In this document: positions 11,701 to 63,441 of the stretch, piece by piece
Position numbering within the stretch: position 1 is the first letter of the stretch
Layout of the letters: each line of letters opens with the position of its first letter
Assembly: GCA_026770705.1 (NCBI GenBank)
Contig: JANJGN010000034.1
Location: 5,518,001-5,582,000, forward strand
Direction: 5' to 3'
DNA from: Isurus oxyrinchus
Lineage: Eukaryota
Length of the DNA stretch: 64,000 nt
Notes under the pieces: model-generated
Seen by the model: the letters and a program-made list of their open reading frames with translations, nothing else
Databases searched by the model: none
Told to the model about the DNA's origin: nothing
Translations under genes and position numbers: made by a program

Positions 11701-11736
11701 ATCTGAAGGCATTGAAAGCACAGGTCAATGATTTAG
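11701..11736 (+). CDS. Micro-exon D1 (36 nt) DLKALKAQVNDL
   Basis: tttttttttcag|atctgaagg...gatttag|gtgggg; matches D class (L2, L5, K6, hydrophobic 9). Confidence 0.8.
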
Positions 11737-13565
11737 GTGGGGTGCTATTCTCTAATGCAGCAATTAAATACGTCATGTAAAGCAAAATGTGTATCCTGCG
11801 AAGTCATTGAACCATGGATTTGTGTAAGGTGGAAGGAGTCACTAATTTCCAAATTGCTGCTGCCAACTGTTTGACTCAATGACCAAACATTGCCTCTCGC
11901 TGTTCTTTTTCACAGCGAACCTGTATTCTTTCCTTTTGAAAGCCACTTGTTTAGTTAAATCCACCAGCTTTCGAGGCAATGCATTCAAAATCATGTCAAT
12001 AATTTGTTGTTAAAAGACCCTCCTTTATTATTTGATGCATTTGTCAGTTTCCCTAAACATATGCTGCCAGCTATTCACTCTTCTTTCACTGGAAACAGTG
12101 ATCCTGACTTATTTTTTATGAGCACTTAAAGTTTTGAAAACACTTTGAAACATATTCCGTTAATGTCATAGAAGGAATGTTCCACATCATATGGCACTTT
12201 CACAAAACTGATATCCTGCAAAGTTATTGCAGTTTCAAACAGCATCATTTGAGGAAGTGCATTCCATAACATAAGAACAACTCGCTGCTAAAACTATTGA
12301 TGGCAATCGTCTCTCCCTTTTGCTGCTTTGTCTGTTGCATCAAATCTTGGACTTCTGCTGATTCAACTTCGCTCATATGGCATCTCCGGTCATATTGAAT
12401 CCTGTTCAGGGGCAAGTTCCTTCTGCACTGCTATAATAATGGCTAAGTTTATTATCAGTGCTCTCCTTTCAATTTTCGCTGTATTTATAAGATGCCAAGT
12501 GCTATGTCATATTTATGTTACAAGTTTTGTCACCGTTCAATAATGTATTTGAAATGATTGTTAGATCAATTCAACACTACCATTGTCTGGCCCATTAAAT
12601 CATATACGTTGCTTTACGTTGAACTTATTCAGTGATGCAACATTACGGAGAAATGCATTGTCTCGTCCTGTCAGGCGCTAGTCTTTTCACAAATCGCCAC
12701 ACAGTTCGATGGTTTTGAATTGTTTAAAGATAACTGCATTATTTTCCTCTCACATGAGGATGCTGCCCTCACCCAAACCCTCTCTTCCTCCACTGTTCAA
12801 ATATACTGTTACTAGTCATTTAAGTCGCTGGTTCATTAGATTCTATCCCAATAAAACTAATGCACCTTTACACAGTGTTTGTGCCAATGCCGGATAAAAT
12901 GAAACACAATGATTTTGGTACTAATATTTTAGTCAAACCTTCAAATCTTCTCTCTTTAAATTTTTACCAATTCGAAAGCACCACCAGCAAGAGCCAAGAT
13001 GTTGTTCACTTTCTAGTAAAGGTCATTTAATTGGCCCCTGGTTCATTAAAAGACGACCAGCTATGGTGCCATTTATGGTCACTGTGTGCCCTTGGTTTCT
13101 AGATGATTGACATCAATTCTATTTTCCAATGTATCCTCAAAGTTCATGCTCCAGATGAACCCGAACACCAGCCTGGTAACACAATTTTGCAACACCTGGT
13201 TGTCGAAGGAGGGAACATCCATCTCCCGGGCACTAAAAGCACCGACACATCACTTTCCCCTTGCCCATAACGTGGTAATTGACAGACACACCAACGTCAA
13301 CTCATCATATCTGGCATGCGCACTACAATCTTTCCCCATCCTCATGGATGCGTCAATTAGAAAGCACTTTGAATTAAGGGCCGATGACCCACCGTCCTTT
13401 AGGGCTGAATGTGTTGTGCTTTCACTGAGCTAGCTCGTGGTCCCATCCATTTATCCCTGACAGTTAGACATCGTTGGGGCTATGTTAGCAAATGAAGTTC
13501 AGACCAGTTCAACTGTGCCAAGTGTCTAACCATGCGCTAAATTTCTATGTATTTTTTTATTTCAG

Positions 13566-13592
13566 AGAATAAACTCCAAAAGTGCCTTAAAG
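13566..13592 (+). CDS. Micro-exon A1 (27 nt) ENKLQKCLK
   Basis: tttttatttcag|agaataaac...cttaaag|gtgagt; KL..C motif. Confidence 0.9.
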
Positions 13593-15875
13593 GTGAGTAC
13601 AACACTGTTGTGTTCTAATCTATAACCGTTGTTTAAATCACTCAGTTCATTAATGTAATCATTGATTATTAAATGGATTTGGCTTGCTTGATATCCATTA
13701 TTCGGGATGCTCTAAGAAGTGATAAGGAGTTTGATTAACAACGATCAAAATTCCCTATATGTCTTTAAAGTAGTAAAACCTCATAAGCACTTCACAGACC
13801 AATTTTTAACCGTGCTTTGTCAACAGCTGTTTTATGGAAAATGTACGTTTTAGGTGTTTCTTTGCAGAATGAAAGCGCATTACTGATTAAAATTGCTTTA
13901 GGAAGAAATTTCAAGGTTTTAAGACACAGGTGACTGAGGAAACGACCACATGTTATGGAATATTCAACATTGGGAATGTGCAGAGGGGCGTCTAGTGAAT
14001 AATGCAGAGGTTTGCTCAGAATTGTTGGTTAGAGAAGTAGATGCGACTACCGAAGATGATCTTTAGAACGTTGAAAACATACGGCTTTACAGACCACAAC
14101 CTAATCACTTCAATAAGAATGCGTGTTCCAATCTACTAATCGATTGTTACTTTTGTTTGTAAAACTTAGTGCAGCTGTTTTTGCCTGTACCAATGTTTTG
14201 GGGAATCAGCAACGAATATCCATGATTTATCAAATTTGTGTTGCAGAACATCCCTTTACATTCACGTGCATGTGGCACGTTAAATTCCAATGCGAATATG
14301 TGTGAAGGAGTTGTATTGGTAACATGGCTGAACAATGAAATCAAGTGCAGACAAATCAATATGCTGAAAACACATAAACCTCTAAGGTGGAAATGAATAG
14401 TTTTGCTGTCAATTTCATACGCCGGCTGAGCAAATGTTAATATAACTTCATCCTATTTCTAAATATATAAAGATATTGAGTAAGATAACTAGACCTCGTT
14501 GGAGAACGCGAGCTTCAATGAAGGGTACTGACTCTCCACGCAGAAAGTAGGAGCACACGTTATCACGTTTAATTCTGTTCAAGTCGGAGTCCACCATCAC
14601 AGGTAGCGTGTTTGGAGTTAATGTATCTTGAATCCTTTCTTTGATTCCATCAAAACGTTTCAGGTTGACGCCACCAGCAAGATCATGAGTTTAACCAAAT
14701 TCACCCGGAGGTTTTTCCCCCTTCCCGTCTTATGATGACCCAATCGGGAAATAATCGGGTCATTTACACACTTCATATTAGTTAAGGCAACATTTCTAGT
14801 CATATGCGTTTGGAAAATGTCGAGACTTGTCAAGTACTAACCAGCATAGACCGAGCTCTCGGCTATTCAAGGAGAATCTGGAACAGCTTGGCCAACAAAC
14901 AACAATATCGCCATATGTTTATGGCATCACATGCAAGGTGAAGATTCGATTTCCATGCAACCTTGTTCTTAAGAAGATGTTGGTGAACAGCCTTAGGAGA
15001 AACTCTGAAATGTTTGTGGTGGATGCTTCACGAGTGTACTGTTAGATAAGAAGTTTAATGTTTGGTTTTGTTCTGCCGATGATGAAGGAACAGCAATGCA
15101 ATTCACTCATCATGGTATGAAACGTGAGGGACATTTTTTCCATTGTGCTCGGTACACTCATTCATTTAGCTGACAGAGCTCACGGGGTTGGAACTAGCTG
15201 ATGAAGATTCCTTGGCGATTTGTGGCAGTGCACATTGTAGATTCAATGAGCTGAAGTTCACTGCGCTAACAAGGTATGACGCCCGGCAAAAAAATAATGG
15301 CAGGTGAGTAGTGTTTGCCTAAATAACTGATATGAAGGAAATACATCCTTAACTCAGCAATTTTTTTAGGGATGCCAATAAGTTTGAAAACGGAATAGAA
15401 AATTAAGTTTGCATATTACACCTATCCCTCTACTAGTTAACTGCCAGCAAAAAGCAAATAAACAACCACTGCTGGCACGGTAACAATGTTTATACAATCC
15501 CATTTAATTTGCTATCGTGAGATATTCATTCCGATGCAGAAAAAAAATCAAAAGTTGGCGGTTCAGCCAACAATTCACTCTTTTACGCCGCATCATTCCT
15601 TACAGATGATTTTTTTTTAATAAGTGGACAAAGCTTTCAGGTGATGCTGAGGGTAGTGGAATAAATGACCTCAGCAACCTCTTATACTCTACGCCCGTTG
15701 AATTATGCTACTGAGTTTATGACTTTGCACTTGGAAAGTAGCAGGCGGCCGACACGTCAGCCGGCGCTTTGTATAAGAGCCAAAAACGTATTTCTCCTTT
15801 GAATATTGAGGTCCAGGGAATATCATAATTTAACTGAAAACTAATGGAGACTGCTGTGTTTGTGTTTCTTTTTAG

Positions 15876-15926
15876 AACTGAACGATTTGAAGGGCAGCCA
15901 GAAGGGAACATGTGAGAAAGGACAAG
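15876..15926 (+). CDS. Exon B1' (51 nt) ELNDLKGSQKGTCEKGQ; an alternative in-frame donor after 15911 gives 36 nt
   Basis: tgtttctttttag|aactgaac...ggacaag|gtgaat; occupies the B slot, starts EL and contains Cys. Confidence 0.7.
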
Positions 15927-16940
15927 GTGAATGTTTGCATATCAATGACGTAGGATCAATGACGTTTCATTGATTTAAGGAACGTGAAGCACAGGTCGCA
16001 GAATTCCCTTTTCTACGGAGCACTTAAACAATTAGCTTGGTGAGCGTATCAATTTGACATAGTGGGCGATGTGCTGATGATGTCGCACAAAATGTTCGAA
16101 CAAAAACAAAAGATAGAATGAGAATTATGATTTAGGCTCGGAATTGGAAAAAAAAGTCTCGCCTGTAATATCGTCGGTGTCATTGACGAGTTTTGGGATG
16201 CAAAGGCAAATTTTTCCCAGCACACAGATACCGCGTACAGGAGATATAAACATCTGTACCGATTCGATGGCCTCCATTTGGAATGGAATATAACTCGTAC
16301 ACTTGTACTATTTTAAAAAATGGAGTGGAAACTGTTTCAAATTAATCAGCTAGTGACGCTGCAGAAGTGAGGCCGAAGGTGTCTATCTACAATACACATG
16401 TGCCGACTAATTGAATACGCAGTAAATAAGAAAATAGGTAAGTATAAGAAATAGATGAAACAGCTGACAACAATTTATTCGAGCATAGAAGATGTGGCGA
16501 AAAGATTGTGAAACATAAAATGAGGCAACAGCTGATTAAAATGATGGAAATGTGTCTGGACAGCACCCTTAGTGAAACAAGAGCAAGTCAACCTATAATC
16601 TGCTGAGAGTAAGCAATCATAGGAGACATTAATGAGGAATGCTTACAGTGAAATAAAGAAGTAATTAAACACTGCAGAATATAACGAATCTAGAAAATAT
16701 ATTGGCGGGAAAATGAGGTGGGCCAGTAGGTGTTATTGAGAATACGACAATGACATCAGGAAAAAAAGGGACGCTGCTATCTGAAATACCATAATGTAAC
16801 TCATAACCATCAAAAAATAAAACGTCATAAAGGATCAATGACTCTAAATGATTATTTTTACGGTGTTTCTAATAACGAATGTAAAGTGGAAGAAGAAATA
16901 TGCAGGATAGTTAAGGGAATTGAGGTAAACATTACACTGT

Positions 16941-16973
16941 GATAATAATAATAATAATGATAATAATGATAAT
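16941..16973 (+). repeat. Imperfect (ATA/ATG)n microsatellite
   Basis: gataataataataataatgataataatgataat. Confidence 0.85.
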
Positions 16974-17166
16974 CGGTCAGGGGCTTCAAATGCCTCGATA
17001 TTAATTGGATGGGAAATTTAGGGAAATGGGGCAAGAGATTGATTTTGGTAACAGGTGAACAGGAAACCTTACTGTAACTACATCTACAAAATCCAAGAAG
17101 TTAATATTTGCTTGCGGATCCAGTAAATGCAAAACAAACAAGAGGACTAAAACTAGTGAACAAAGT

Positions 17167-17447
17167 CAGAATTACCTGGAAAAACTCAGCAGGTCTGGCA
17201 GCATCGGCAGAGAAGAAAAGAGTTGACGTTTCGAGTCCTGATGACCCTTCAACAGAACTAGGTGAATCCAAGGAAGGGGTGAAATATAAACTTATATTTC
17301 ACCCCTTCCTTGGATTCACCTAGTTCTGTTGAAGGGTCATCAAGGACTTGAAACATCAACTCTTTTTTTTTCCCGCCGATGCTAGCAGGCCTGCTGAGTT
17401 TTTCCAGGTAATTCTGTTTTTGTTTTGGATTTCCAGCATCTGCAGTT
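17167..17447. mobile_element. Inverted (foldback) pair of Penelope-like terminal repeats
   Basis: 17167-17289 is a near-perfect reverse complement of 17292-17416, centred on ...gaaatataa|ac|ttatatttc...; the right arm continues to about 17447. Confidence 0.92.
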
Positions 17448-20339
17448 ACGTGTACTTTTTTTAAATAATGAAACCTTCTGGATTTACTGGACCATAACAC
17501 ATCAAGATGCAATATAGAGCAGGCGAGGACTTATATATGACGAAGGATATGTTAAAAAAAGACAGACAAGAAGTGCAGAACAGTTTATTTTGCGATGCTG
17601 ATAATAGAACTTGGGAAATTAACTGGGCAGCGATTTTTGTAAAGTTCGATATAACACAGCAGTGTGAAAGTTTAAAGAAAAGTTAAAAGTGTTCAAAGCA
17701 AATGTTCTGCTAAAGCGACTGCACAAACTAAAATTATTGAATTCGTATTGATGAATGAGTGCATAAGGTTGCAACTTATATATCTTAAATAGGCATATAT
17801 TAAGTATGTAAAGAAGTTAGGTTGCATCATAAGAGTGAATAAGAAGTTAAGAGAGAAGCAACGTTACATTTGGCAAGGTAATGAGGAAATATCGGAAAAA
17901 AACAAGTTTAATGAAGCAAAACAGAAATAGAAATAGCTTACAGGTGCATCAAAATGACATAGGACGTTAGATTCTGAATTGGAGTATAATGGAAGAGATA
18001 TAACAATGCCAAATTTAACGTTTGATAGATGACAGTGATATAATATACTTAGGATGTTTTAATACACATCAGTGACATAGGTCAGATGGGCATGGATTTA
18101 AATGATAGAACAACTAATTAAGCAGTTGCATTAACAGGAATGAATTAAAGCAGAATACAAAAGACGTATTCAATAATATCATATATGCCTTGGCTTGAAG
18201 GTATTGCATTGGCAAATATAAAAAAAATAGCCCTTGGAGGAGATAGCGGGGCTTTAATAGAGATAGTTAATAGTTGTTCCGACAATAAACAATGTAAGGT
18301 GCCGGAGGAATTGTTAAAAATCTAACATAACTCCCATACTTGTAAAGAAAGGGGAGGCAGAGCGAATGGGGAACTATTGAACAAATATCCAAATACTAAT
18401 GATGGGTGAAATAGTGGACTGCCTGCCAAAAATCACAATACGATCAGCTGGTAATGAAAAAAAAAAACATGTAGTACTGAATTGCCAGCGTAGATTTCAA
18501 AAGACATGCCCTAGTTCCGGAAACATTGTAGAGTTCTCTGTGGAGGTGAGAGAGAGATGAAAATGGCAAGCAGGATATGCATTTTGAAATTATTCTCAAA
18601 AGCCTTTCAAATGGGTGCCCCATAATGGACCGAGGAATAAGGTTATTGAGTGTGGTGCTGGCGAGCAATTGGCAAATTAAATTACTACCTATCACCAAGA
18701 TATGAATGAGAGATTGGAAGGAAAGGGTAGATATTCCCAACGGCAGAAAAGGGGAAGGTGAAAAAAGCATTCCGTCGGCTTTACTTCCACAGAGCTCGAA
18801 CTGAAAGTTAGTGACGTTATCTTAATCATGCATGAGAACTCTGTAGGCCTCTACCAGAGTATCGTGTGAACTGCTGGTCTCCATGTCATAACCATGATAT
18901 ATAAGCTTTCGTGCCGTTACAGGTAAGATTTAGAATGATATCAGTAATCCATCATAGACACAAGAGAAAATAAAGAGGAGGTGGGGTTTCTAATAGAGGC
19001 AATTAAAATATGAAAAGCTTCGTTATATTCGATATAGAAAGACTGTTTCCACTTTGACAGCAACAGCAGCCATCATCAAGAATGCAATAAAAGCAAGGAT
19101 AGAAATAAAAGCTCAAACAGAGAATTGAGGGTGTAGAATGGGAGGATGGCGGAGCTCGTTGAAGCGACTGGTGTCCATGCATTTCTTCTGACGCTAGTCA
19201 ACTATTCGGTGCTATACGGACTGAAAAATTAGGATGATAGATTTAAATGAAAGAGGTTTGAAGGCCAAAGAACGGCCTACATGGACTGGTTCCATTTAAT
19301 GGCCAGTTTCTGTTTCGTGTATCACACTTAATCAAGTTAAAATAGCGAATTCGGTTAAGGATATCTCGTTATCATTCTGAGGCGAGTAGTTGGGTACTGT
19401 GCATTAACAAAACGTGCTCTTGTGGACTTACGCAGAACCAGTTATGACTGGCGCACATCGTCATTAGCCCGAAGCACAACTGCTCTGATATTACCAGAAA
19501 ACCGGCATCTTGATATTCTCCAAATATTTTGTTAGGTGACTGATTATCAGTAAACTTTATTCAGAACACGTACAGGTGCAAGTATAACATTCGGTCATGT
19601 GTTGCGATCTGTCCGATGTTACTACTGAAGATGTTTTTTATTCCCCCTCCCATTATCGTCAATAGTAACAAAATAAAATGGTTGTGTGCTAAATAAATAC
19701 TGGAAGTAAATGCCCTTGCATTGCAGGCGATCTTCCTAAGCCCCCTCCCGATGAAGGTGAAGGTGAGGAATGAAATAAAATTACTCACCAGACTTGTCGG
19801 CTCTTGATGTTTCAATGATTGATAGATTAAATAAATATACAAATTAAGTGAGATGCGTTAAGACATTTTGTTAAGTGCATAGGAATTTTTTGTCAAAATG
19901 CTGCGTTCACCATCACATATGCGATGCAGCTGAGCTGAATTTCAGATAAAATCCCTATGATGGTTTCATCAGGAACTGCCAGATTCGTGCTAATAGCGAA
20001 GAGGAACATTGGTCTGTCGTTTTTCTTTATTGTATATGGAAGCAAATTTCATCAACTTTGGACACCCAAAAGGTGAACATATTTTTGGCGCTTATTTTAT
20101 GAATTGCTTTAACATATGAAAAACACACACTATTCAGAATTCAATTTAAGTGAATCCCCATAGACCGATATACACCTCCTTCGGCTATCATCTAAAGACA
20201 AGCAACGAAACTTCTTTCAAAAGGGAGGTCCGAAGAACATGTCATGAGCACGAGTTAAATATAGTATCGAGGGCTGCATATATGTTGCACAACAAACAGT
20301 GCATGTTAATAAGAAACAAATGCTTCTCCTTCAATTCTT

Positions 20340-21070
20340 CAAAGAGAAAATCCAGCCATCACCCCTTTGGCATTCAAAAGCAATTCCAATGCTGACACTA
20401 TCACTACCAGCGGCGCTTTGTATTGAGCTGAAACTGAACTAAAGCAGCCACTGAAATTTGTCGGCTCAAGAATGATTTGAGGCTTGGAATTTTGCAGCGA
20501 GTAACTCACCTCATGACTCCCCAAAGCCCCTGAGCACCGCCTACCGGGAAGAAGTCAGGAGTGTAGTATAGCATGCTCCATTTGCCTGGATCATTGCAAG
20601 TCTAATAAAATGGAAAAAAGCTGGGAAGTATGCAGGACGAAGTTTCCACTTCATCGGCGCCTTAACTACCAAATTCAAAATCCACTTCTTCCACCATTAA
20701 GCACAATTACAGCACCGAGCACAATCTTCAAGTTGTACTACAACACCTCGATGAGATCCTTTGGCAGCTCCGTCCAGATCCTCGAACTCTACGTCAGCAC
20801 GTAATAGGCCAGCAGAAGCATGGCAAAACCTCCTAGCCGATTCCTTCCAAGCCAAAGACCATTGAGGCTTGAAACCATATCGGCGTTCATATCTGCCGCT
20901 GCCAAATCCACCAACTACTTCACTAACTGTATTGTGATTGTACTTAAACCAGTTGGGCATCAGCAATTCAAGAAGGAATCTCAGTTCCACAACCTCAAAT
21001 GCAGATGGGGATAGACAATTAAAGCTGGCCTAGCCAGCGACTCCCAAATCCCATTAAAAAAAAAAATCCA
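20340..21070 (+). mobile_element. Decayed LINE 3' fragment (APE-RT family) with A-rich tail
   Basis: gagtaactcacctcatgactccccaaagcc...gctggcctagccagcgactcccaaatcccattaaaaaaaaaa. Confidence 0.75.
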
Positions 21071-21793
21071 TTATGGAAAGTCTCACAGCCAGCAGAGATA
21101 TCATTGACTGCTATCCCACCGCGTCTATTTTGTGAAAAGCAATTTACCTATGAGCAACAATCGTGAGAATAAAGGTCCCCAAAACCCCGTCCTAAATGAT
21201 CGCAAGGTCCAATAAATAAGAGGTTGACACTCTTACTTCTGTTTCTAACCAGCATTCCCAGATAATGATGCACCTACTTATGTATTCATTCTTGGAACAC
21301 GTGCATCACCTCGCAAAGAACATTTAGATAAGCGAAAGTAAGTTAGCCTAGTTAACATTCATTTGGTGGCAAATGATTCAGCTTTGCAAGTTGCTTCAGA
21401 TGGTTGGCCATCATAGTTACAATCACACTTAACATGATTACATAAACTTAAAACGTAAAGCGCACTTGCATTTAGAAGGCTCATACATGGTAAGAACGAT
21501 TCCTGGTGAGATTCAGAATAATAATTCCAGCAGACAGAAGACAAGGTAGGAAAATGGAAATTAGACTCCCTAATGTTCCAGTGCGCATCCCAGCTAAAAA
21601 AAAATAGTAATGGTTGTATAAATTTCCGCAATGCAACAGCATGTACATGAAGCTGGTTGTATGAAGTGACGCTAAATGACCTGGGAAAAACTAACAGTGT
21701 TGTGAATTTTGAGCCGTTGACAATAATTAATTTGGAAATGCATGCAAAGCAATGAATGTCAATCTGATCGCACTGAGTTGCACTTCATTGCAG

Positions 21794-21820
21794 ATTTAGA
21801 GCTTCTGAAAAAGATTTTAG
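21794..21820 (+). CDS. Micro-exon C1 (27 nt) DLELLKKIL
   Basis: cttcattgcag|atttagagc...gattttag|gtaaaa. Confidence 0.85.
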
Positions 21821-22769
21821 GTAAAATGTTCTACAAGTTATTTATTCAAACTACGTATTGGGAATCACCGTCGGTCACTTAACCACTGTTCTGGCAACTG
21901 TTGCTTCAAAAGCACCATTTCGGCTGTCAACACGGTTGCTTTTTTGTCCGAACTGGTGGGTTTCAGATATATTATGCATCCATCATAATCAACGAAAAGC
22001 ATAAACTTTTCAGTATCGCAAACGAAAGTATAATGCATCGCCCACCTTTTTCCCCAGACCCAGAGCGATATCATAGTCATGCAAAAAAATTACCTAGCAA
22101 AGTTTAATTATTTACCTGTCAAAATTTAAATATTCATCTGACAAACTTTAAAATATTTACCTTTTAGCTGAAGCTGTTTCTGCAATGCTGCAAAAGATGA
22201 AATCTTCCTTCACATTTCATTTTCTTTAGTGAAATTGAGAGTTGATTCTGGATATATGATAACTGAAAATTATAAAAGCTGGCCTCTTCCCAGTATTGCG
22301 TGCTATCAGTGAAACTTAGAGCAAATTAACTGTGGGAGAACAAATGCATTCAAAAAGCTCTTAGAATAGATGGCCAAATGTGTCATGAATGATATAAGTT
22401 TCAATGTGCAGCTTTAAAGAGGACTGCGTGTTGGTGAGCATGGGGGCACATGGAGAGATTTGCAGAAATTTGGCAGCTGAAGGCATAAGCAAACATTGAA
22501 GTCCATGAAGGCAGGTGCTGTGAAAGTATCAAGCATTGGAGGAGGGCAGGAGTCTTGGAGAGATTTGAAACTAAGTGTGCTAATTACGAGTTTGAGGCTT
22601 TTCAGCTATACACCCGATGGAAGTCCATTCACACCATAGTGATAAATGTGCCAGACCTGGTGTGCGCTCGATACTCACATTAGGCGTTTGGATGGGTCTA
22701 AATTCAGAGTGGCTGCCATAAATAAGAGATCCATGTTTTCTCTGCCCAATGGCAACCTAATTATTACAT

Positions 22770-28875: not shown

Positions 28876-28879
28876 CCAC

Positions 28880-50630: not shown

Positions 50631-50744
50631 CGAAAGTGGAAACGTTAACTTCGTATAGTTTTGAAAAAATGTTCCTAAAATGTGTTTATATAATCCTTGC
50701 TGATTCACGAGGGCAAAATATATTCTTTAGAACAAATAAGTGAC

Positions 50745-51130: not shown

Positions 51131-52168
51131 CAAGGCTTCCTAAGTAACGAAATACATCACTCACCTGCCGGATGAGGTCAGTATTCCATTTCTGCCCATT
51201 ACCTTCTGCCTTCCTTTCTTGGCAGCAATCTCTTATAGGATGTAACCAATCTTTGATAAATGTTGAATATTGCTTTATTAACTATGCCATCAATACAAAA
51301 TGACAAGATTACACTATGTCTAAGTTACCAGTTTGTAAACATATCCTGTCATTTTCCACGATCTCTACAATTATGTCGCAAGATCTTTCTTATCCTATGG
51401 TTTGTTTCGAATTGTGTTCTATATTTTGCATAGCCTTTCCTCGTTCTTTACATTTCTATGCAATAATGCCATGATATTTATGATCCGGCAATCAGTCATT
51501 CCATCTGGCTAGCAAGCCATCTGAAGTCCCCAAACCTCCTCCTTGCAGCTCACAAAATTTCCAGGTTTTGTATCTTACGAAAGGATATCAAGAAATTGTT
51601 TCCTGGTCGTTCAAATAAAGGTCATTGATATAGATCGAGTTTTAACAAAAAAAACAGCAGTGGCCATTGGACCTATATCTTCAAACGTCGATTGAATGCC
51701 CTCCCCAATTAGTAAAAAAAAAAACAATTACTGACCATTACTGCTCTGTGGTTCCTCTCACTCAGCCAGCTTGAAATCGGGCCTGACACCATCGCTTTAT
51801 TATGTACCCAACTGGTGATGAAGCACTATTCCCACACAGATTATTCAAAGCTAGCGGCATGGCCATCATCACAATTCTTTGTAAATGCTTCAAAAATAAG
51901 CCAATTTAAATGCGCAGGTTTTGTAATCTAGTGTCGTGGTTACGTCCTAAATAAATCTCAATATATCATTTACGTTCAACTTCCTCCTGTCCTATTCAAA
52001 ATGCATTGAAATGAGATATTTAAATGGTTTTGCACAATTTGAGCAAATTAAATGAGATGCCTTTTATACCTGCTTGAACAGTTGAATTCGAAATTGCATT
52101 GTCATTCAAACATATTGTTGCACAAAAATAATCCAATTATATTGAAGAAGGATGATTGTGCTTCCCAG

Positions 52169-52204
52169 ATTTGCAACAGATGAAATCAGATCTGCAAGAT
52201 GCAA
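52169..52204 (+). CDS. Micro-exon D5 (36 nt) DLQQMKSDLQDA
   Basis: gtgcttcccag|atttgcaac...gatgcaa|gtaaga. Confidence 0.88.
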
Positions 52205-52914
52205 GTAAGAATTCCCAATGGATATTCAAATTCAGACGCTATATTCACCGTGTTCCACTGATACTAAGGACGCATTTTTTGTAAGAAGAAGCAACCCGCC
52301 CTCCCCCCTCCGAATTAACTCAAATTCTAGGCATTATTTTCCTTGTGTTTAAATTATTGAGCGTCAACCGTCTTCAATGTCAATGAGGAAATTGAACGAG
52401 CGGCATTTGATCTAACGGACGATTTGCATACCTTGTCATCTGGCATCTTGCTGAAAAAATATCTTGACGAATCGGTGCTCAGTGTGCTTGGCTAGCCTAG
52501 ACACACAACTCAAAGACAGCACACAAAAACAGCTTTGAAAGAAAAAAAAATAGCAGGTTTTGACAACAACTGAGGGGAGCGAAGCAGAGTTAAAGTTTAG
52601 AGTCCAAAGTGACTCTTCCTCGAAGCTGAAGAGAGCAAGAAAAATGACTTGATTAATGTTACTCAAAATGGGCAATATCAGGTAGAACGAACGAGGAGAT
52701 CAGGGATAGGTTAAAGGTTGTTGAGCTTAAATAACACAGACGCTATTAAACAAAAGCCATAGGAAATGTTTATGGCTGCACTAAAGAGGGAAAAAACAAC
52801 AACATTGGAGCAGAGAAAGCCTGCCGGAATAAAAGTCAGTTCAGAAATCATGAACTTGAATATATGATAATGATTGGCACTTAGAATCTTAGAATCTGAA
52901 CAAAAATGTTTATA

Positions 52915-53390
52915 TCGCAGAAAGAGGCCACTTATCACATCATGTCCGCGTCAGCCGAGAAATGCGCCACCAAGCCTTAGCTGAGTTTTTGGAACTTGCC
53001 CCGCAGCCCTATAACTTACAGCACTTGAGATGCATTTTCAAACAGCTTTGACATGAGCTGAGGTTCTCTTGCCTCTGCCCTCCAATCAGGCAGTGATTTC
53101 TAGGCCCCTATATCCTTCTGAGTGAAATAGTATTCATTTCCTTTCATCTTTCGGCTCAAACTTTAAGTCACTGTGCCCTAGTCATGGAACTCCATGCTGA
53201 ATTTTAAAAAAAATGTCCATCTCGTTTTCGTTATCGAATCCCCTCAGGAATTTGTACATCAAAGTCAAATCTCCACTCAGCCTCCTCTTTACCAAGAAGA
53301 ATTACCCAATTTCCCTCATAGCTGTAATCTTCCAAATTAGGCAATATCTACGTAAATTGCCTGAGCACCCACTTTCATACAATGGCAAAT
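52915..53390 (-). mobile_element. CR1-type LINE 3' fragment (antisense)
   Basis: aatttgtacatcaaagtcaaatctccactcagcctcctctttaccaagaaga is antisense CR1 FSL...RL.GDL..VYK. Confidence 0.65.
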
Positions 53391-53817
53391 GCAATTAAAA
53401 AAAAAAACTGTCAGATCTCTTATTTGTTCTGTCATTAACACTTAGCCTGCAGCAATGTCATGGGAACGTGCATCTCACGTCTGCAATTAAAATTTTAAGA
53501 GCTCAGCATAGATCAATTTCAGGGTTAGGTAGATAAGCAATTGAACGATGATTTATCGGTAGGGTAGCGTGATAAGAGGGAAGCACGACTAGTTGGCGTG
53601 GATTCTTGTAAAAAAATAAGCATCAAAAACCATTTGGACCATTACTCTCTTCTTAACGTGCCCTGAAAAAGGAAACAACAGCCGACATGATAACTTCAAT
53701 ACAGAATCAACTTCCCGGCACTTCAGCCGGTGAGCAGCCATTTCTGATGTAAAATTACACTTGGATTTAACCAATCCGAATGTTTGTCTGACTTTCAACG
53801 GTGTGCTTATTTCTCAG

Positions 53818-53844
53818 GACGGAAACTGAAGGAATGTCAAAAGG
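53818..53844 (+). CDS. Micro-exon A5 (27 nt) RRKLKECQK
   Basis: cttatttctcag|gacggaaac...caaaagg|gtaaat. Confidence 0.88.
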
Positions 53845-53941
53845 GTAAATCACGACAAATGTTACCGTGTGTTAACTATCAAAAAGTCAATAAAATTGGC
53901 TGTTTCCATATGGCCTTTTAACGCATTTTTATTTCATGCAG

Positions 53942-53968
53942 AACTGCGAGGAAACGCCAAGAGCGATA
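53942..53968 (+). CDS. Micro-exon B5 (27 nt) ELRGNAKSD (Cys replaced by Ala)
   Basis: tttatttcatgcag|aactgcgag...agcgata|gtgagt; 97-nt intron from A5. Confidence 0.88.
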
Positions 53969-54730
53969 GTGAGTCAAACGTTGCAACCACATTACATGCT
54001 GTAAATAAAAAGCCGGATGGGGTGCTAGATTCACAGAAAAGGTGATCGTTCAATGTTTTAAATGCGTGGACATTGGGAAGAAATTTGAGATTTGAAGGAA
54101 ATAAAGTCTTTTAAAAGCCCTTGGAAAATTAATGGTTTTGCACCTGGAGCACTGTATAGAAACTGACAGCAATCTGTTTCTGGAATTGAATATCAGATGT
54201 GAACCCTCCATCAAATACGCTTCTATGGCTTTACCATATAGGAAGTCTTCTTTTTTCATATAACGCTAGGTTGACCAGAATGGGAATGCCAAGAAACAGA
54301 TGCCATCAGAATTTATACAGTAATTGCAATGAGGGCGGGTAGTTTTCTTTTACTGTGGATAATTTAGGCAGAGCAATTTGGACCTTGTTTCCCCAAGCAT
54401 GTGAGCGAATCGGAGCATAACTGATATCACAATTCTGACGATAATGCTCCTTTCAACAGTTACGTGTCCCTGCTGAGTTTCAGGTCCGTTGACTGTATAT
54501 TCGGTGAATCTATATCTATTGCCGAGAAATATGTCATCTCTAGACCACGTTTACGTCTATGAAGTTGAGACACTGGATGGGTTAATAATATAGTACTCTA
54601 CAAACGGGCTTTTCGGTTGAATATTTAAAGTGCTCAGCAACAATCGACCACAAAGTAAAGTGACTGAACGGACAAAAAGTAACTCCATAGCGATTTTTTG
54701 AACTGAGTGTTAATATTTCTTCAATTATAG

Positions 54731-54757
54731 ATCGGAAGCTTTTAGAAGGGGAAATAG
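54731..54757 (+). CDS. Micro-exon C5 (27 nt) NRKLLEGEI
   Basis: tcttcaattatag|atcggaagc...gaaatag|gtaaga. Confidence 0.88.
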
Positions 54758-56720
54758 GTAAGAAAACAGGGCTTTACTTCTATGATAACCAAATATTTTG
54801 AAACATTTTGTACCGTTTTTCACTGCCTGATTAAATTTAATCTTATTCAACATTTCAGAAAATATGTACTGAGCTCGGAGTTGCGCAGCGTAGAATTAGC
54901 GGAAAAGCAAAGGGTCTTAAATGCTTAACATTATGAGGATAACTTTGATAGTTTACGTTTGTACTGCTTTGAGTATGAAGGTGAAGAAATGATGTCAACA
55001 TTAGCATGAATAAATGGATTTAGGATGGAATGAAACTTGTTTCTCTTCCAGTAGAGTCCAGAAATAAAATTATTTAACTGTAAGATTAAAAATACGGAAA
55101 TCCGGAAAGGTGTGAAGATCAGGATCCATTTTTTTCATACAAGACAAAAATGAAATCTAAAACCATTGCCTCAAAACGGTGTTAAGATGCATCTGTTGTA
55201 CATGTTCTTTTTTCGAACTTATATTGGTAGAGCTTTTTTGTTCCAGAGCGTAGTCAGGCACGGAGCCACAGTGGGGAGATGGAATTAGGATAGACATTAG
55301 TCATGACTTGAGCGACTGGTGTAAAAGATTCTAGCATTTTGGAAGGCCAATTCCCTCTGGGACATTATAATTCATATTGATCTTTGGCGAAATTGCTAAG
55401 CTTACATTTAAGTCAATCAACCCAATACTTTATTGTAAGATTTGTTTTACTTGATTGGGGCATTGAAGAAGTTAATAATCCGCCTAAAAGAAATATGTTT
55501 CTTGAATGTGCAGTTGAAGTATAATTTCGATAAAGACTAAAAATAATCGTGGCCACAATGGTTTTGTCTACCCCCCAGTGAGATTAATTTTCGACACAGA
55601 CAGAATTGATCGGTGATTTAACCAATGCGTTGACATTATCAACCCACCATCAAATAAAAGCTGTGAGCTTTTCAGAGACCACTTCGTGAAAATATGGTAG
55701 TAGATACCACTCTTTCCATATTTGCAGCTTTCGTGAATAACTTTTGCTTTCATCTTTGTTGCACTACTGCTGAACCATTGAGCTGAAATTATTGCAATTC
55801 TATTTCATAAGTATTCAAACAATGACGAAAGGCATGTGGTCAACAATCATGCTAATAAACCTATTTTGGGTGTTGGTGTTAAGTAAGAAGCAGATTAAAG
55901 ACCAAATATATTTTTCATCCCCCACCGTGACAATGTCCAACCATTATTTGTCGTTTACATACTGCAACACAGGTAAATTCAATTCCCATCTCAGCCTCGA
56001 GTTTAGGTGTTCAGATTGAACATATCACTGCTTCCCACAGTTTGGTGTGAATAATACGGAAATGGATGCAGGTCACACTCTAGACGGGTCAGCGCAATAT
56101 CTAAGAACTTTACTTCTGATATGGTCGGAGTGAGACCCTGCCGAGGAGGGGGAAATTCAGTTGAAACTGTAAGCCAACCAACGCTCCATTTTCTGTTGTA
56201 TCAGGAGAACTCGTAGTACCACGATTCTACAGAAGAAGGCAGAACAGTGCAGTTCACTCCGGATTCGGAAACAATATTTAAACATAATGTAACATCATTG
56301 AAACAGACTTTTCCTTCGTCAGTGAATTGTTGTGTATGGATTATTCGTGTTCAAAAATTAACTGCCGCGGCACTTCCTACAACAAAACTGTGTTTTCACC
56401 TCAAAACTAAATCATGCATTGTAAAATAAAGTTGGACACACAATTTAGTGAAAGCTACAATATAACCTGAGGCGTTCAGTTTCACCTGTTACTAATTACC
56501 TCATTACACAGTGAAGGCGTTTCCAGTCTCAGCACGCATATTTTCATCCAATCGTTCCACGAGCTGTTTTCCGGACAAAGGCATATTTTGAAAGGCTCAT
56601 GCTATGTAAAATTTTAAGCATAGAAATTTAAAAGATAGAATACACGTTGTGGCCAAAGACGATGTATACAGGGCGTATTAGATTTGTTCTAAGAATTCTG
56701 CTTTTGATTTCGGTTTTCAG

Positions 56721-56756
56721 AATTGGAAAAACTGAAAAGGAAGCTGAACAATACAG
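56721..56756 (+). CDS. Micro-exon D6 (36 nt) ELEKLKRKLNNT
   Basis: ttcggttttcag|aattggaaa...aatacag|gtgaag. Confidence 0.88.
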
Positions 56757-58804
56757 GTGAAGAAAGATAATGCCCGATGGCATTTTAGGATATATGGCAT
56801 TGGTGACTGAGTGGTGCAGTGGTGTTGTCGCTGACTTTGAATACAATTGCAATGGCTGGAACTGCCCAAGGTGTCATCAATGTTGACATCGAACTGGAAA
56901 TCATGAAGTCTCAAGGCATCAGTTCAAACATGGGCAGGAGAATTTCCTGTGCATTATCACGTACCACCAAACCAGAGCTGATGATTCAGTGTTCCTCCAT
57001 TTTGAACATCTTTTGCAGGGCATGCTGTCGTCTGGTAGAGCGCAGAATGCAATTTGTGTGGGTGACATTGATTTTTATCAGAAAGAGTGGTTCGGTATCA
57101 CTGGACAAGTACTAAAGGGCACTGATGATAGACGGAGCCTCCAGCAACTGATCATGGAAGCAACAGAAGGGAAAAACATACTTTCCATCATCCTCACAAG
57201 CCTGTCTGTCTATCAGGCTCTCACTAGCAGTGACCCCCGCAGAGTTCTTGTGGAGACCATGCACTGTCCACACATTAACATTACACTCCATCGTGTTGTG
57301 TGGAACCACCGCCATGGCAAATGAAATAGATTTCAGATAGATTGAGAAGCTCGAGGCTGGCCAAAGAGAGGGCAGTGTAAGATATCATCAGCAGCAGAAA
57401 TGCACCCAATCTCAATCTGTGACCTCATGATTAGAATATCCCCTACTGTACCTTTACGATCAAACCAAGAGATCAACACTGGTTGAATGAAAATTGCAGA
57501 AGGGTAAGCGAGGGGCAGCACCAGACAAATGAGGTGTCAATCTGGTAAAGCTACAAAAATGACCTCTTGCGTGCCAAGCGGCATTCGGAGCACCTTAAAG
57601 ACAGACCTAAGCGATTCCAAGACCAACGGATCATATCTAAGTTCTGTGGCCCTGACACATCTAGCCGTGACTATTTGGGGTGAACTAAGCAGTCATTTGT
57701 GGAATAGGTTGCACAAATATTCCTATCCTCAAAGATGGAGTAGCCGGGCAAATCAATGGACCAGATACGGCTGAATTACTTGCTACAAACTTCAACCAGA
57801 AATGCTGAGTTGATTATCCATCTCAGCCTCCATCTAATGTCCCTTGCATAACAAATGCCTGTCCCAGCCAAATCGATTTACTTCACGTGATACCAAGAAA
57901 CGGCTGAAGGCACTGGACAGTGCAAATTCAGTGGGCTCTGCTGATATTCCGGCAATGACACTAACATTTTTCTGTTAAGAGCTTGCCGTGCCTCTCAAGA
58001 AGCTGTTCCATGACGGCTACAGCATTGGCATGAAGTCGACAACGTGAAAAATTGCCCAAGTGTGTCCTGTACATAAAAGAAAAACAGGAAATCCAACACG
58101 GCGAATCACCACACAATTAGTTTATTTCCATTCTACAGCAAACTGATGGAAGGCGCTATCAACAGTGTTATTAAACGGGAACTTGCTTGGGTTCCGAGGG
58201 TTACCCTCAGCTATTAAACACATTGTAGCCTTGGTTCAAATATACTACAATATCTGAGCTCCCGAGGTAAGATTGATTGCCGTGGGATGGAAGGCCACAT
58301 TTGAACGATTGTGGCATTATAAAGCCCTAGCAAAATTGGAGTCAATGAGAATTGGGGAAAAAACTCCCCTCTGGTTAGAGTCATAGCTATCAGAAAGAAA
58401 AATGTTTATGCTTGTTGGAAGTTCTTCATATCAGCTCCAGGACATCACTGCAGGAGTTCCTCAGGGTAGTGTCCTCGGCCCAAATACCTTTAGCTGCTTC
58501 ATTAATAAAGTTCCTTCCATCATAACGTCAGAAGTGGTGGGTGTTCCCTGATGATTGCGCAATGTCCAGCACCATCTCGATTCCTCAGATACTGAAGCTG
58601 ACCATGTAAAAATGCAGCATGTCCTGGAAACATACATGCTTGGGCTGAAAGCAAGTGAAACATTTGTTCAACAGAGGTCTCAAGCAAAGACCATCTCCAA
58701 TAAGAGGAAATATAATCTTGATATTCAATGGCATTAATATATCTGATTCCAAACAACCAATATCCTGGTCGTCAGCATTGAACAGAAACTGAACAAGATT
58801 AAAT

Positions 58805-58843
58805 AGTTCTGTCGAAGGGTCATGAGGACTCGAAACGTCAACT
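58805..58843 (+). ncRNA. Minimal type I hammerhead-ribozyme-like motif in PLE end (variant core)
   Basis: AGTT-CTGTCGA-A-GGGTC-ATGAG-GACTC-GAAA-CGTC-AACT: stem I AGTT/AACT, stem II GGGTC/GACTC, loopless stem III; core position A6 is U. Confidence 0.6.
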
Positions 58844-58939
58844 CTTTTCTTCTCCGCCGATGCTGCCAGACCTGCTGAGTTTTTCCAGGTAATTCTGATT
58901 TTGTTTTGGATTTCCAGCATCCGCAGTTTTCTTTGTTTT
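58806..58939 (+). mobile_element. Young short Penelope-like terminal insertion with 12-bp target-site duplication
   Basis: caagattaaata at 58794-58805 and 58940-58951 flanks a 134-bp block nearly identical to the arms at 17167-17447. Confidence 0.9.
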
Positions 58940-60189
58940 CAAGATTAAATATAGTCTGGAACAGACACAAATGAAAACAGGTGACTAGAAGAGCAGATCA
59001 GAGGCTCGGAATCCTGCACTGAGTTACTCACCACCTGACTCCCTAATCCCTGCCGATAATCCATAAAGCACAAGTCAGAAGTGTGATGAAATACTCCCCG
59101 CGTGCCGCAATGGGTGCAGCTCCAATTCAAGATGATTGACACTATCCATGAAAAAGTAGACCACTTAATTGCCACCCCAGCCACAAATATTCACTCCCTC
59201 CACCACCAACGCACAATGCCCTTGGTGTGTGCTATCTGCACGGTACACTGAATAAATTCATCACGTCTCCTTATAAAGCATCTTCCAAATAGAATACCAC
59301 TAAAATCTGGCAGGACAACATCAGCATATAGATGGCTACACCCCTGCTGAAGCTTCTGAACCAAGCCACTCGCCATCCTGACTTCTAAATTTGTTGTTGT
59401 TCTTTCACTATCTTTGGTACAAGATCCTAGAATTCCCTCTTCAACAGCAGTGTGGGTGTAACAACGCTAAATGGACGGCAGTGATTCAAGAATGCAGCTG
59501 ATCGTCACTTTCTCAATGGCAATTACAGAGGGGCAATTAATTAATTATTTTGCCTATCCAGCGAAACCCACATCACTTGAATGCATAAATTAAAAAAAAA
59601 CTTTTGTGTCGATATTAAATTTGTGAATTTGACCCCAGCGAATCTTTAATGCCTCTCTGTGTTTTTTTTTTATATTCGCCAGAGTGATACAAGTACTGTC
59701 AAGTTAAAAGAGAACAGATTTCATAATCGAGACTTACATATTTTTTTGAATATGGAATATGCTGCTAACTTTAGATTGAGCTTTTCCAATTGGTTTAAGT
59801 ATGACTTACGTGTAACAACGGGCAGCGGTGTCAGATCATCACCTTCACTTTGAAGTTGGACAGTTCATGATAGGTGCCAAGAAGCACTTACTTGCATTTA
59901 CAGCAGCCTAAATGTAAATTTAATTCTCCACCTTACAGCCCCCTTTCCAACCCGTCCCGCAGCTATCCCGTGCTCTACAAAATTAAAAAAATGTTGAGGA
60001 AAGTTCCCAAATTGTAAACCGTAAATTTTGCTTAGCCATTGGTGTTATTTGTGACAGAATGTTATTTTATCAGATGAGTTTTGTCGCCTGATGGATTGTT
60101 TCCAACATCAATACCTGCAAGAACGAACTGGGCCGAAAAGCCTGTTTTATTTGCTGATGTGATTTATATGCCTTTTATTTCTTATACAG

Positions 60190-60216
60190 AAGACAAGTTA
60201 CGACAGTGTGAAGAAG
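60190..60216 (+). CDS. Micro-exon A6 (27 nt) EDKLRQCEE
   Basis: atttcttatacag|aagacaagt...gaagaag|gtacca. Confidence 0.88.
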
Positions 60217-60319
60217 GTACCAAACGACAAAAAACAAAATACGTTTGCGGTTTGACTTTTAAAACTTATCATAACATTCAATTTTCTTCCGGCTGACCAA
60301 TTATAATTTTGTTTTTTAG

Positions 60320-60346
60320 AGTTGCGTAGAAAGTGCAAAACTGATG
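60320..60346 (+). CDS. Micro-exon B6 (27 nt) ELRRKCKTD
   Basis: ttttgttttttag|agttgcgta...actgatg|gtgagt; 103-nt intron from A6. Confidence 0.9.
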
Positions 60347-60649
60347 GTGAGTAACACAAATAAATAATGCTCACTTTACTGCTTTGGAATACGGAATTTA
60401 ACCAATCTGTGACAGTTATCATTTGTGCAAATATTGTACCCTTTATTTCACATTGCTGTTAAAATCAGGTCCTGATGTTGATTATAGAAATTTTGAAAGG
60501 CTGCCCTTGGAAGTGAGGGGGCGTGGTGTTTAAAACAGGGTAAGTTCATGGGCATTTTGTTTTTTTTTCACTAAACAACGTGTAGGAGAGCGCTTGAAGA
60601 GTTCAACAATCAATGTTATTACCTGATACTAACAGCAGTGTGAAATAAG

Positions 60650-61200
60650 GTGTCCACTTCCTGAATGGGTGCATGAGCAGAGGGACTTGGCAGTGAATGT
60701 AGATAGGTCATTGAAGGCCGCATGGCAGATGATAAAGCATATAGTATCCTGAGCTTCATGAATGGGGTCATAGAGCACTAGAGCAGCGAGGTTATATGGT
60801 GGGTTTTCCTAAAACGCTAGTTATAGTTCAGCAGGAGTATTGTATACAGCTCTAGGCGCCAACTATAGGAAGGATGTCAATACTTTGGAGAGAGTTTTAT
60901 GCAACAAAGGTTCCAGGAAGGAGAAGTTTATGTACTTGAAAATTGATTGAAGAGGTTGTCACTGTTCTACTTGGAGAAGAGAAGGCTAAAGGTAGGTTTA
61001 ATAGATGTGTTCAAAACTAAAAAAGGGGTGGAAAGATTAGATGTGTAGAAGCTGTTCGCCAATTTAATACAAAACGAAATTGCAGTGATTTAAAGCGATT
61101 TGTAATAGAAGTAAATGAGATGTGAGAAAGAAAAGTTGTTCATACAGTGACTAGATCGATTCTGTAATTCAGTGCCTGGATGTGTGCGGGAAAAGCTGAA
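60650..61200 (+). mobile_element. CR1-type LINE RT C-terminal fragment
   Basis: QRDLAVNVDRSLK; ctagttatagttcagcaggagtattgtatacagctctaggcgccaactataggaaggatgtc resembles LVRP.LEYCVQFWAP.YRKDV; LFYLEKRRLK. Confidence 0.85.
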
Positions 61201-61789
61201 AGAACTCGCTGTCAAAGAGTGCATTTTATGGAGCGTTGCCAAAGAAAGGCAAAATTTAGTGATGCAGTGCCCTTTGATGAGAGAGTTACAAGGATGGAAT
61301 GCCCGGTCGGCAATGCTGATGACAGAATGTTAAAGGGTGCAAAAGTGGCATGAATTGGATGTGTCCAGAGATCTTTGAGCTATTTCGGCCTGAAGGAGAT
61401 AAGACGGTGCCACTGCAGAGCCGGTGAAGGCATTTCAAAACAAACGTGAGTCTTTAAAATCATCTCCTAACTAAATCAAGAACAAACGCTACTTTCCAGA
61501 TCATGGATGCTGCGTGACCAGGAATAGTTGCGTGTTAAGATGCAGGAACTTCATTTCTTTTTTGACGAGGTTCAGTTTATCTGGCGATTTGCAATAATTG
61601 AAAATTTGCATTGCAATGAAGCAACGGCTACAGTAGGAGCCAACGAATCCGAAGCCATTTTTTTTCAGAAGGCGGAGGTAGGAGTAACGTTACAGCTCTG
61701 TGCTCAACAACTTATTTCCAAGCAAAATATAGCATCGCAGTTGCGAAAATTTGCGGCCCGCTGCAGAGTATTAAATTATAGATCCTGAG

Positions 61790-62080
61790 CTGTATTGACA
61801 AGTTCAATGTAGAGAGGTTGTCCCATCTGAAGTGAGAATCGAGCATAAGAGATTTGTTTCTTTTTCATCTCAGGGAGTAGTGAGTTTTTTTTTGAACTCA
61901 TCCTGAAAAGGCAGTGTCGGTAGAGTATTTGAATGCATTTAAGCAGAAGTGGAATGAGTATTGCTAAAGAAGGGGGTTATCGGCTGTGAGGGGTAGAAAG
62001 AATTTTATAATCAGACGAATCATCAACTTACTGAATGGCAGAGTTGCCTAAAGGGCCGGTGACCTAGTTCTGCTCCTAAT
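61790..62080 (+). mobile_element. CR1-type LINE 3' end fragment
   Basis: tgtagagaggttgtccc...ctcagggagtagtgag...tgaatggcagag...ttctgctcctaat tail. Confidence 0.6.
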
Positions 62081-63414
62081 ACGCGCATGTAAATTCGCAA
62101 GAAATGATTTTGTCACAGGGAGAAAATGGCTTCGATCTTCCCAATAATTACTGTGAATACATTTGTGACCAGCCACTTCTTAATTACTGGCAAGCAGTGA
62201 AGAGGGTGTGAGTGTTTGTGATGAGGTGAACCTGCGTTTTCTCATTTACATATGTATCCGATAGTAGCTCTGCCGTATGAAATATGCTCAGAGAAGCATG
62301 TAAATGAAAGTAAAGAGAGAGAGAGGGATATTTCAGGAAAAAAAAAGATCTGTAGAAAAATGCATTTTGAATTTTTAAAAACACTGTAACTCATGTCAGC
62401 ATAAAACATGATACATTTTTCAAAAGAACTACGAAGTGGCTGACACTTTATTTGAAATAGGAAGCTGGAAGTCAATCAGCCTAAGGGCAAAGATTGGGAA
62501 ATTATTAGAAATCCTTGTCAGGGATAGACTGAAATAACATTCAGAAAGGCATGGAGTGATCAACATAACCAGAATCGATGAGCTAAATGAAAACCCTATT
62601 TGAAGAAGTACATTGAATTGTTTGCTGGGGAAACGGAAAGATATGTTTCAAGTGGCTCAGTGTTAATTGTCAATATGTATTTTCTATGCCATCGGCGTGC
62701 AAGAAAGGAGTCGCAATACCCAAATGGTGGCACATAGAAGTATAATCGAAGCTGTGCTATGAATCACAATGAGATCAGTGATATAAGCAGAAGATGGTCG
62801 TAGCAGATGGCTGTTTAAAAACAAAACATGGACATGGCTTGTAGAAGAGGTTTGCGTCCTTCTTTTTTTCCGCTTTTGGTTGTTTAATGAAAGACATTTC
62901 CTGTATATGTTTTTAGACAATACAAAACCTGGATAGGTACGCATAATGATGAGTGATCTTACATTCTACAGGATCAAAGCAATGTGGTAGATGGAACTCT
63001 AAAGCATATGTCCGGGTCTCATTACTGCTGCTTCCGGGGAGAAGCGAGTGGTGGGAGGGGGAGGGCGGGTGATGGATGTGATTGAAATGGCAGAATATAA
63101 ACAGGTGAATTTTACAGTTAATTGAATCTGATAAGCTGACACTTTTAAGAAAATAACGAGAAATGCAACTCATAGAGCAACACATTTAAGGCCATTTCCT
63201 GAACTTCATATTTCTGGCTTCTTCGAAGTTCCAATACTTGCACACACAAGCACACACTGCAGTCAAGCAACTCACCATGGTTTCTGTCTTTCTCCCTTGA
63301 GGCCCTGAATGTGCGTAATCATGTCTGCATTAATAAACTCTTTGAAGGCTATTTTCCGAAAAGATTCAAACTCCGAAAATTATAATATATTTCACATTCT
63401 CCTCCCTGGTACAG

Positions 63415-63441
63415 AAGAAAGATTGCTGGAAAAAGATATAG
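63415..63441 (+). CDS. Micro-exon C6 (27 nt) EERLLEKDI
   Basis: ctccctggtacag|aagaaagat...gatatag|gtaaaa. Confidence 0.88.
   Translation, partial: KKDCWKKI

Follow-up and report, generated by a model that had tools for sequence, protein, structure and literature searches.

A phase-1 micro-exon array in Isurus oxyrinchus as the probable interior of one very large coiled-coil and B30.2 gene

The stretch of 64,000 nucleotides analysed here (the window; positions 5,518,001-5,582,000 of contig JANJGN010000034.1 of Isurus oxyrinchus, contig prefix C34 below; genome 4.98 Gb) contains a row of very short exons that all share one phase. This raises the question of whether such uniformity allows the free skipping of exons, as an earlier note on the window had proposed, or is a trace of how the exons arose. 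Our answer, to which we give a probability of about 0.6, is that the window is the middle of a likely single gene of ~413 exons and 1.54 Mb, gene B, which would encode a signal-led, Cys-studded coiled-coil rod of ~4,000 aa with a B30.2/SPRY domain at its tip. According to this reading, the shared phase is a footprint of duplication, and the length of the rod changes mainly at the genomic level, through blocks that keep the coiled-coil register.

Phase-1 micro-exons in the window and around it

The window exons were located by a splice-site scan (AG..GT) and picked partly on being open in phase 1; the splice matrices were built on approximate frequencies, of which the strand control used below is independent. 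On the + strand, between positions 11701 and 63441, 23 exons follow one another in a repeating 36-27-27-27 order: sixteen of 27 nt, six of 36 nt and one of 51 nt, for which a 36-nt donor is possible too. Phase 1 is open in 23/23, phase 0 in 9/23 and phase 2 in 12/23. The final base is G in 21 exons, as in the ordinary vertebrate donor consensus, and the first base is A in 20, while a Glu or Asp codon stands at 18 of the 22 adjacent joins and at 207 of the 253 possible ones, none of which creates a stop. The regularity of the cassettes is qualified by the second, which has no C-type exon either in gene B or in its paralogue C on the same contig.

A phase-free test, in which candidates above 6 bits were taken by splice score alone over 1,579,300 bases with the - strand as control, agrees with this picture. 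The + and - strand counts are 140 and 14 at 27 nt, 127 and 9 at 36 nt, 38 and 11 at 21 nt, and 31 and 14 at 15 nt, and no other length within 9-150 nt has a comparable strand excess; 138 of the 140 candidates of 27 nt and 120 of the 127 of 36 nt are open in phase 1. The description in the earlier note is thus borne out for the exon lengths in multiples of three with one shared phase (1-1), for the predominance of final G, initial A and acidic junction codons, and for four weak donors, at 11736, 26340, 34502 and 60216. Phase symmetry by itself is common in repeat genes.

Micro-exons of the same type run from ~4.86 Mb of the contig to a terminal SPRY exon, ~413 of them across 1.52 Mb; this set is the union of two trained models, ~3% of it false by the - strand control, and the strand excess points to 430-450 exons. 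By length there are 198 exons of 27 nt, 146 of 36 nt, 30 of 21 nt, 28 of 15 nt and 11 others. Joined, they give 11,967 nt and 3,988 aa with 0 stops, 155 Cys (3.9%) and 8 Pro, and Glu or Asp at 323 of the 412 junctions. Hydrophobic residues recur with periods of 3.49-3.61 (3.535 in the window, compared with 3.545 expected for 39/11), from which the rod is predicted to be a coiled coil, with many of the Cys at core positions. The profile of the SPRY exon, onto which we infer that the rod exons are spliced, finds the B30.2 domain of BTN3A1 as its best PDB match (E 1.5e-30). The largest gap inside the array is 51.6 kb and the exon classes switch in blocks; no internal copy of the SPRY exon or of a 5'-type exon was found in 1.7 Mb of sequence. 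Judged from the sequence, the ~413 micro-exons likely form one 1.54-Mb gene that ends in the SPRY exon and would be read as a single transcript.

The comparison with paralogue C indicates that the window exons are under purifying selection. Twenty-two of them are 92.7% identical to their counterparts (47 of 648 bases differ), compared with 75-82% for the introns, and dN/dS is 0.31. Both AG and GT are kept in paralogue C for 22 of the 23 exons, the exception being that at 15876, which has lost its acceptor.

The features are as follows; the window exons rest on the splice scan and were compared with paralogue C.
1..64000, + strand: whole window, interior of the gene B array; both gene ends lie outside it
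C34:4,859,457-4,859,567, + strand: 5' 111-nt exon of gene B, phase 1, hydrophobic start; counterpart in paralogue A
C34:6,395,819-6,396,339, + strand: terminal B30.2/SPRY exon of gene B, phase 1; Pfam E 1.8e-13
11701..11736, + strand: D1, 36-nt phase 1-1 exon; donor gtgggg; conserved in paralogue C
13566..13592, + strand: A1, 27-nt exon with Cys
15876..15926, + strand: B1, 51-nt exon; a second in-frame donor gives 36 nt, end 15911
19727..19762, + strand: possible 36-nt proline-rich linker exon, outside the count of 23
21794..21820, + strand: C1, 27-nt exon
25527..25562, + strand: D2, 36-nt exon
26314..26340, + strand: A2, 27-nt exon; donor gtagat, identical in paralogue C
26443..26469, + strand: B2, 27-nt exon; no C-type exon after it
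34467..34502, + strand: D3, 36-nt exon; donor gtgctg, gtgggg in paralogue C
41192..41218, + strand: A3, 27-nt exon
42116..42142, + strand: B3, 27-nt exon
43542..43568, + strand: C3, 27-nt exon
47003..47038, + strand: D4, 36-nt exon
48176..48202, + strand: A4, 27-nt exon
48311..48337, + strand: B4, 27-nt exon
49430..49456, + strand: C4, 27-nt exon
52169..52204, + strand: D5, 36-nt exon, final base A
53818..53844, + strand: A5, 27-nt exon
53942..53968, + strand: B5, 27-nt exon, final base A
54731..54757, + strand: C5, 27-nt exon
56721..56756, + strand: D6, 36-nt exon
60190..60216, + strand: A6, 27-nt exon; donor gtacca, gtagta in paralogue C
60320..60346, + strand: B6, 27-nt exon
63415..63441, + strand: C6, 27-nt exon

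In paralogue C the 36-nt donor of B1 is the stronger one, yet the acceptor AG is lost. The linker candidate at 19727-19762 keeps its AG and GT there, and 8 of its 36 bases differ, which is divergence at the intron rate.

Reading frame, coiled-coil register and copy number

The proposal that any exon can be skipped in frame holds for the frame itself: exons ending in T number 2 of 413, giving a stop at 0.57% of joins, so that 99.4% are stop-free. These two exons lie at C34:5,292,332 and 5,685,491, and in both cases the next exon begins with C, which avoids, in the actual order, a stop that joining to most other exons would give. The coiled-coil register is a second constraint. Tested as the fit of the removed length to a period of 3.4-3.7, a test that becomes near-trivial above ~30 aa, register is kept in the window by removing 1 of 23 single exons, 20 of 22 pairs and 3 of 21 triples, and over the whole gene by 33 of 413 singles and 387 of 412 pairs. 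A single exon of 9 or 12 residues breaks the register because its length does not correspond to complete helical repeats. The actual exon order also gives a better hydrophobic stripe than shuffled orders in 7 of 8 blocks (for the window, 6 shuffles out of 200 do as well); the remaining block is the 21-nt one, which is insensitive to order because each of its exons is one heptad. When 20% of the exons are skipped at random in simulation, the stripe score falls in each of the 8 blocks. Taken with the completely filled ten-copy array described below and the stops that T-ending exons can give, these results do not support the idea that each exon is a free unit, and skipping single exons as a routine would probably put kinks into the rod.

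Donors below 2 bits make up 23%. In the ten-copy array weak donors are inherited by position (gtggga in 10/10, gtactg in 9/10 and gtacct in 8/10 copies), and their bases +3 to +6 have an identity of 0.87-0.95, compared with ~0.77 deeper in the intron. Weakness alone is therefore not a marker of optional exons, and their conservation is compatible with regulated and with required sites alike. In-frame differences of the kind that the earlier note envisaged do occur in predicted models of relatives from four species: isoforms differ by 9, 6, 9, 9 and 9 aa, and an older model by 7 aa. Of the five isoform gaps in these predicted models, three look like linker sequence and two like rod sequence. 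Some single-exon skipping is plausible, and its result would be hinges rather than clean length steps.

Copy number, in turn, does change between paralogues, as the earlier note had expected of a tolerant architecture. Gene B contains ten copies, each ~28 kb, of a unit of 13 exons and 121 aa, with all 130 exon slots filled (one extra weak candidate was dropped), a dN/dS of 0.55 and introns only ~80% alike between tandem copies. Probes for six parts of this unit find 10 sites each in gene B and 6, 6, 17, 19, 18 and 1 in paralogue C, where the counts are lower bounds and the array exons were inferred from match coordinates. There, a piece of ~6-7 kb over four exons (12+9+12+9 = 42 aa, six heptads) is repeated ~17 times, with 7, 3, 3, 1.5, 2 and 1 copies in the six super-units, and one copy is shorter by a 21-aa exon pair. 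As far as the sequences tell, the same ancestral unit was amplified differently in the two genes. Within gene B, all eight intron-homologous units of up to 33 aa measure 7, 14, 21, 28 or 33 aa, and none 5, 9 or 12; five of the eight sit in the 21-nt block.

Origin of the array and competing explanations

We propose that the ancestral array consisted, as in butyrophilins, of phase-1 heptad exons ahead of a B30.2 exon of phase 1 and most likely grew by unequal crossing-over in introns, each copy inheriting phase 1 and the G/A junction. Exon symmetry would follow because duplicated copies inherit phase and junction, and selection for splicing diversity is not needed to explain it. Selection would then have favoured blocks that keep register, so that gain or loss of genomic blocks, more than free skipping of individual exons, would mainly set the length of the rod. 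The working modules would be the 21-nt exon (7 aa), the 36+27 pair (21 aa), the 27+27 pair (18 aa) or the 39-aa cassette of the window, and occasional single-exon skips would serve as hinges. Such a gene would encode an extended coiled coil that is probably secreted, has its chains joined by disulphides and places the B30.2 domain far from the N-terminus. The rise of a coiled coil being 0.15 nm per residue, such a rod could act as a spacer of up to ~0.6 micrometres that keeps an immune-type binding head at a distance. More tentatively, we consider it possible, though short of likely, that this gene of ~413-450 exons and 1.54 Mb has more exons than titin, that its secreted product is a disulphide-locked rod reaching at most 0.6 micrometres, with B30.2 at the tip and a length tuned in whole heptads by block amplification and paired skipping, and that the gene represents an undescribed, fast-varying immune or structural family of cartilaginous fish.

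Several observations weigh against this interpretation, besides the limits of the register test and of the paralogue C counts given above. The start-codon exon of gene B was not found by ATG-donor scans or by paralogue alignment, three of five relatives have no signal-like start (their models may be 5'-truncated), and the database models of relatives measure 101-1,697 aa, the longest well short of the predicted rod. Single exons have been lost naturally (the acceptor of B1 in paralogue C, and C2, missing in both genes), and two predicted database models have single 9-aa gaps in rod sequence. Paralogue C joins sequence matching gene B up to 4,850,373 straight to that from 5,091,193 (C34:6,433,690-6,455,840), so that 241 kb of the 5' part of gene B is absent, including the signal-like 5' exons and ~40 rod exons; it is also ~277 kb shorter between 5.10 and 5.51 Mb. 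It may not be a working equivalent of gene B and, being still under purifying selection, may use another start or be intracellular.

Where the product is located depends on its N-terminus. The putative 5' exons of gene B start with hydrophobic 11-mers of 2.6-2.9, and two of the five relatives with ones of 2.8-2.9; the best 19-residue hydropathy is 0.34 in the rod and 1.5 in the putative 5' exons and does not go beyond 1.5-1.6, too little for a typical membrane span. Most B30.2 domains are cytoplasmic. Secreted B30.2 proteins of the vespryn/ohanin type have a cleaved signal peptide. On the sequence features the product probably enters the secretory pathway, with its core Cys cross-linking chains. 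We regard as doubtful, yet worth weight, the opposite topology, in which the hydrophobic N-terminus is a membrane anchor and both rod and B30.2 are cytoplasmic, as in an Ig-less butyrophilin or BG tail. The usual place of B30.2 domains, BTN3A1 as the best solved relative and the basic residues after the hydrophobic stretch of the chimaera protein suit it; the low 19-residue hydropathy, the 3.9% Cys, many at the core, and a basic, furin-type motif in the N-terminal sequence from chimaera do not. This alternative alters only the location part of our explanation.

The remaining alternatives concern the array itself. Combinatorial splicing, with exons or cassettes skipped freely into many rod lengths and Cys counts and weak donors marking the optional exons, would account for the in-frame joins, the 23% of donors below 2 bits and the 6-, 7- or 9-aa isoform differences; it has a parallel in the alternatively spliced tails of chicken BG (PMC5938342) and a lead in an ESM Atlas cluster of long SPRY proteins named 'isoform X51' (score 0.76). 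The register fit of single removals, the non-random order, the damage done by simulated skipping, the filled slots, the conserved weak donors inherited per position and the linker-like nature of three of five isoform gaps make it unlikely. That the array consists of several shorter transcription units or has internal gene ends, and yields no 400-exon mRNA, is in our judgement more unlikely still. The short database models, the block-wise exon classes and the 51.6-kb gap would fit it, but there is no internal SPRY or 5'-type exon, the block order is the same in paralogue A, and in paralogue C the duplicated unit begins upstream of the first exon and extends through the SPRY exon. That the exons are chance matches to splice signals, remains of decayed repeats or an artefact of assembly is hardly credible and already largely refuted, given the ten-fold strand excess, the dN/dS values of 0.31 and 0.55 and the tandem introns being only ~80% alike. 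DNA contigs also match the window in 1-3 kb pieces, although the sequencing run may be the assembly's own source. Over window positions 41001-61000, contigs from this and a second organism gave collinear pieces of 0.4-3.2 kb, and at the 15 contig joints listed there, with 180 further ones beside these, the short sides lie in repeats.

Known systems, relatives and neighbouring sequences

Gene B resembles the tails of butyrophilins and BG proteins but fails membership of the BTN, BG and TRIM families. For the chicken BG genes and zipper protein, PMC5938342 and PMC4046983 describe a coiled coil encoded by numerous very small exons whose first codon is split, 21-nt exons, alternative splicing of the tail, and exon numbers that vary between genes and alleles (27-37 reported in dominant alleles). 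Gene B shares the tiny split-codon exons and, in B versus C, the variation between genes. It differs in that BG consists of signal, IgV and membrane span while gene B has no IgV; BG has 21-nt exons and no B30.2, whereas in gene B 30 of 413 exons are 21 nt and a B30.2 is terminal, its 27- and 36-nt exons keep register only in pairs, and Cys are many. Butyrophilins (BTN/BTNL) have a variable number of heptads followed by B30.2 (PMC12841164, PMC4046983) and are found in cartilaginous fish (PMC12841164); gene B likewise has heptad repeats in small exons before a C-terminal B30.2, but no IgV/IgC, no clear membrane span, a rod about a hundred-fold longer and its own SPRY clade. Of the 126 upstream open frames of at least 75 aa listed for genes A and B, 102 were compared, and none of these matches an Ig family; motif scans of the surrounding DNA gave spurious matches only. 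TRIM proteins also have a coiled coil, in gene B predicted from periodicity, followed by PRY-SPRY, but neither RING nor B-box was found in gene B, in those 102 frames or in 13 database members of its SPRY clade. Titin is comparable in having very many exons, 363 in human (PMC11931755), and in its in-frame skipping, and is otherwise unrelated; if gene B makes one transcript, it exceeds that number. Readings as an intermediate filament, a lectin neck or an Ig receptor were abandoned once the SPRY exon was found, and an ITIM-like stretch at C34:4,989,711 was rejected, being out of phase, with micro-exons going on beyond it.

An SPRY tree of 85 of 172 scored proteins plus two loci (isoform duplicates and lower-scoring rows omitted) places genes A and B with their database relatives in one clade of 15 of the 87 sequences (support 1.0), apart from 72 other B30.2 sequences. 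The clade may be called shark-type, as its database members, where named, are all from cartilaginous fish. These relatives, from chimaera, skate, ray and sharks, combine a rod with an SPRY of the same clade and are much shorter than gene B; they include XP_042192744 (chimaera, 1,697 aa), XP_038671249 (catshark, 945 aa), XP_055510696 (skate, 295 aa) and XP_069775384 (ray), and the rods of three align to that of gene B (blastp E 7e-12 to 5e-8). Automatic pipelines have named them after unrelated proteins, as TRIM39/58/69-like or A33-like, and what the databases contain of the family is short pieces under wrong names. Annotation can hardly detect gene B itself, since its exons fall below the usual length of alignment seeds; an initial homology search gave no match, and no open-access title or abstract start was found that describes a rod and SPRY family. 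A two-copy complex prediction for the skate relative scored 0.01 and gave no usable answer. Long SPRY clusters without Ig or RING in the ESM Atlas (1,277, 1,579 and 1,802 aa, Chordata) could be additional clade members or a parallel in bony fish.

The weight of the finding lies in the scale of the gene and in paralogue-specific amplification that keeps register, rather than in phase symmetry. It separates two constraints, the reading frame, under which any exon is free, and the coiled-coil register, under which the pair is the unit, and the comparison of gene B with paralogue C shows which blocks evolution has multiplied. Within the butyrophilin/BG/TRIM B30.2 system, the family may represent a branch of the oldest jawed vertebrates that has so far gone unnoticed, and it provides several hundred parallel cases of 15-36-nt exons, their weak donors conserved, in which micro-exon recognition can be studied.

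Five SPRY exons of the gene B type, and with them five such genes side by side, lie between 2.7 and 7.5 Mb of the contig. Paralogue A has 111-nt, 36/27-nt and 21-nt exon classes in the order of gene B. Genes D (- strand) and A (+ strand) stand head to head, ~30-55 kb apart, at C34:3,974,000-4,005,537, which suggests a common promoter region. Elsewhere, C21:82.9-118.2 Mb holds a very large cluster of conventional B30.2 exons, with most of the 150 genome matches. Within the window, positions 536-2000 contain a decayed reverse-transcriptase-like remnant, presumably of LINE type, with a partial second copy at 28893-29172. Short interspersed repeats lie at 2335-2470, 17159-17447 (an inverted pair), 29418-29592 and 58804-58939.

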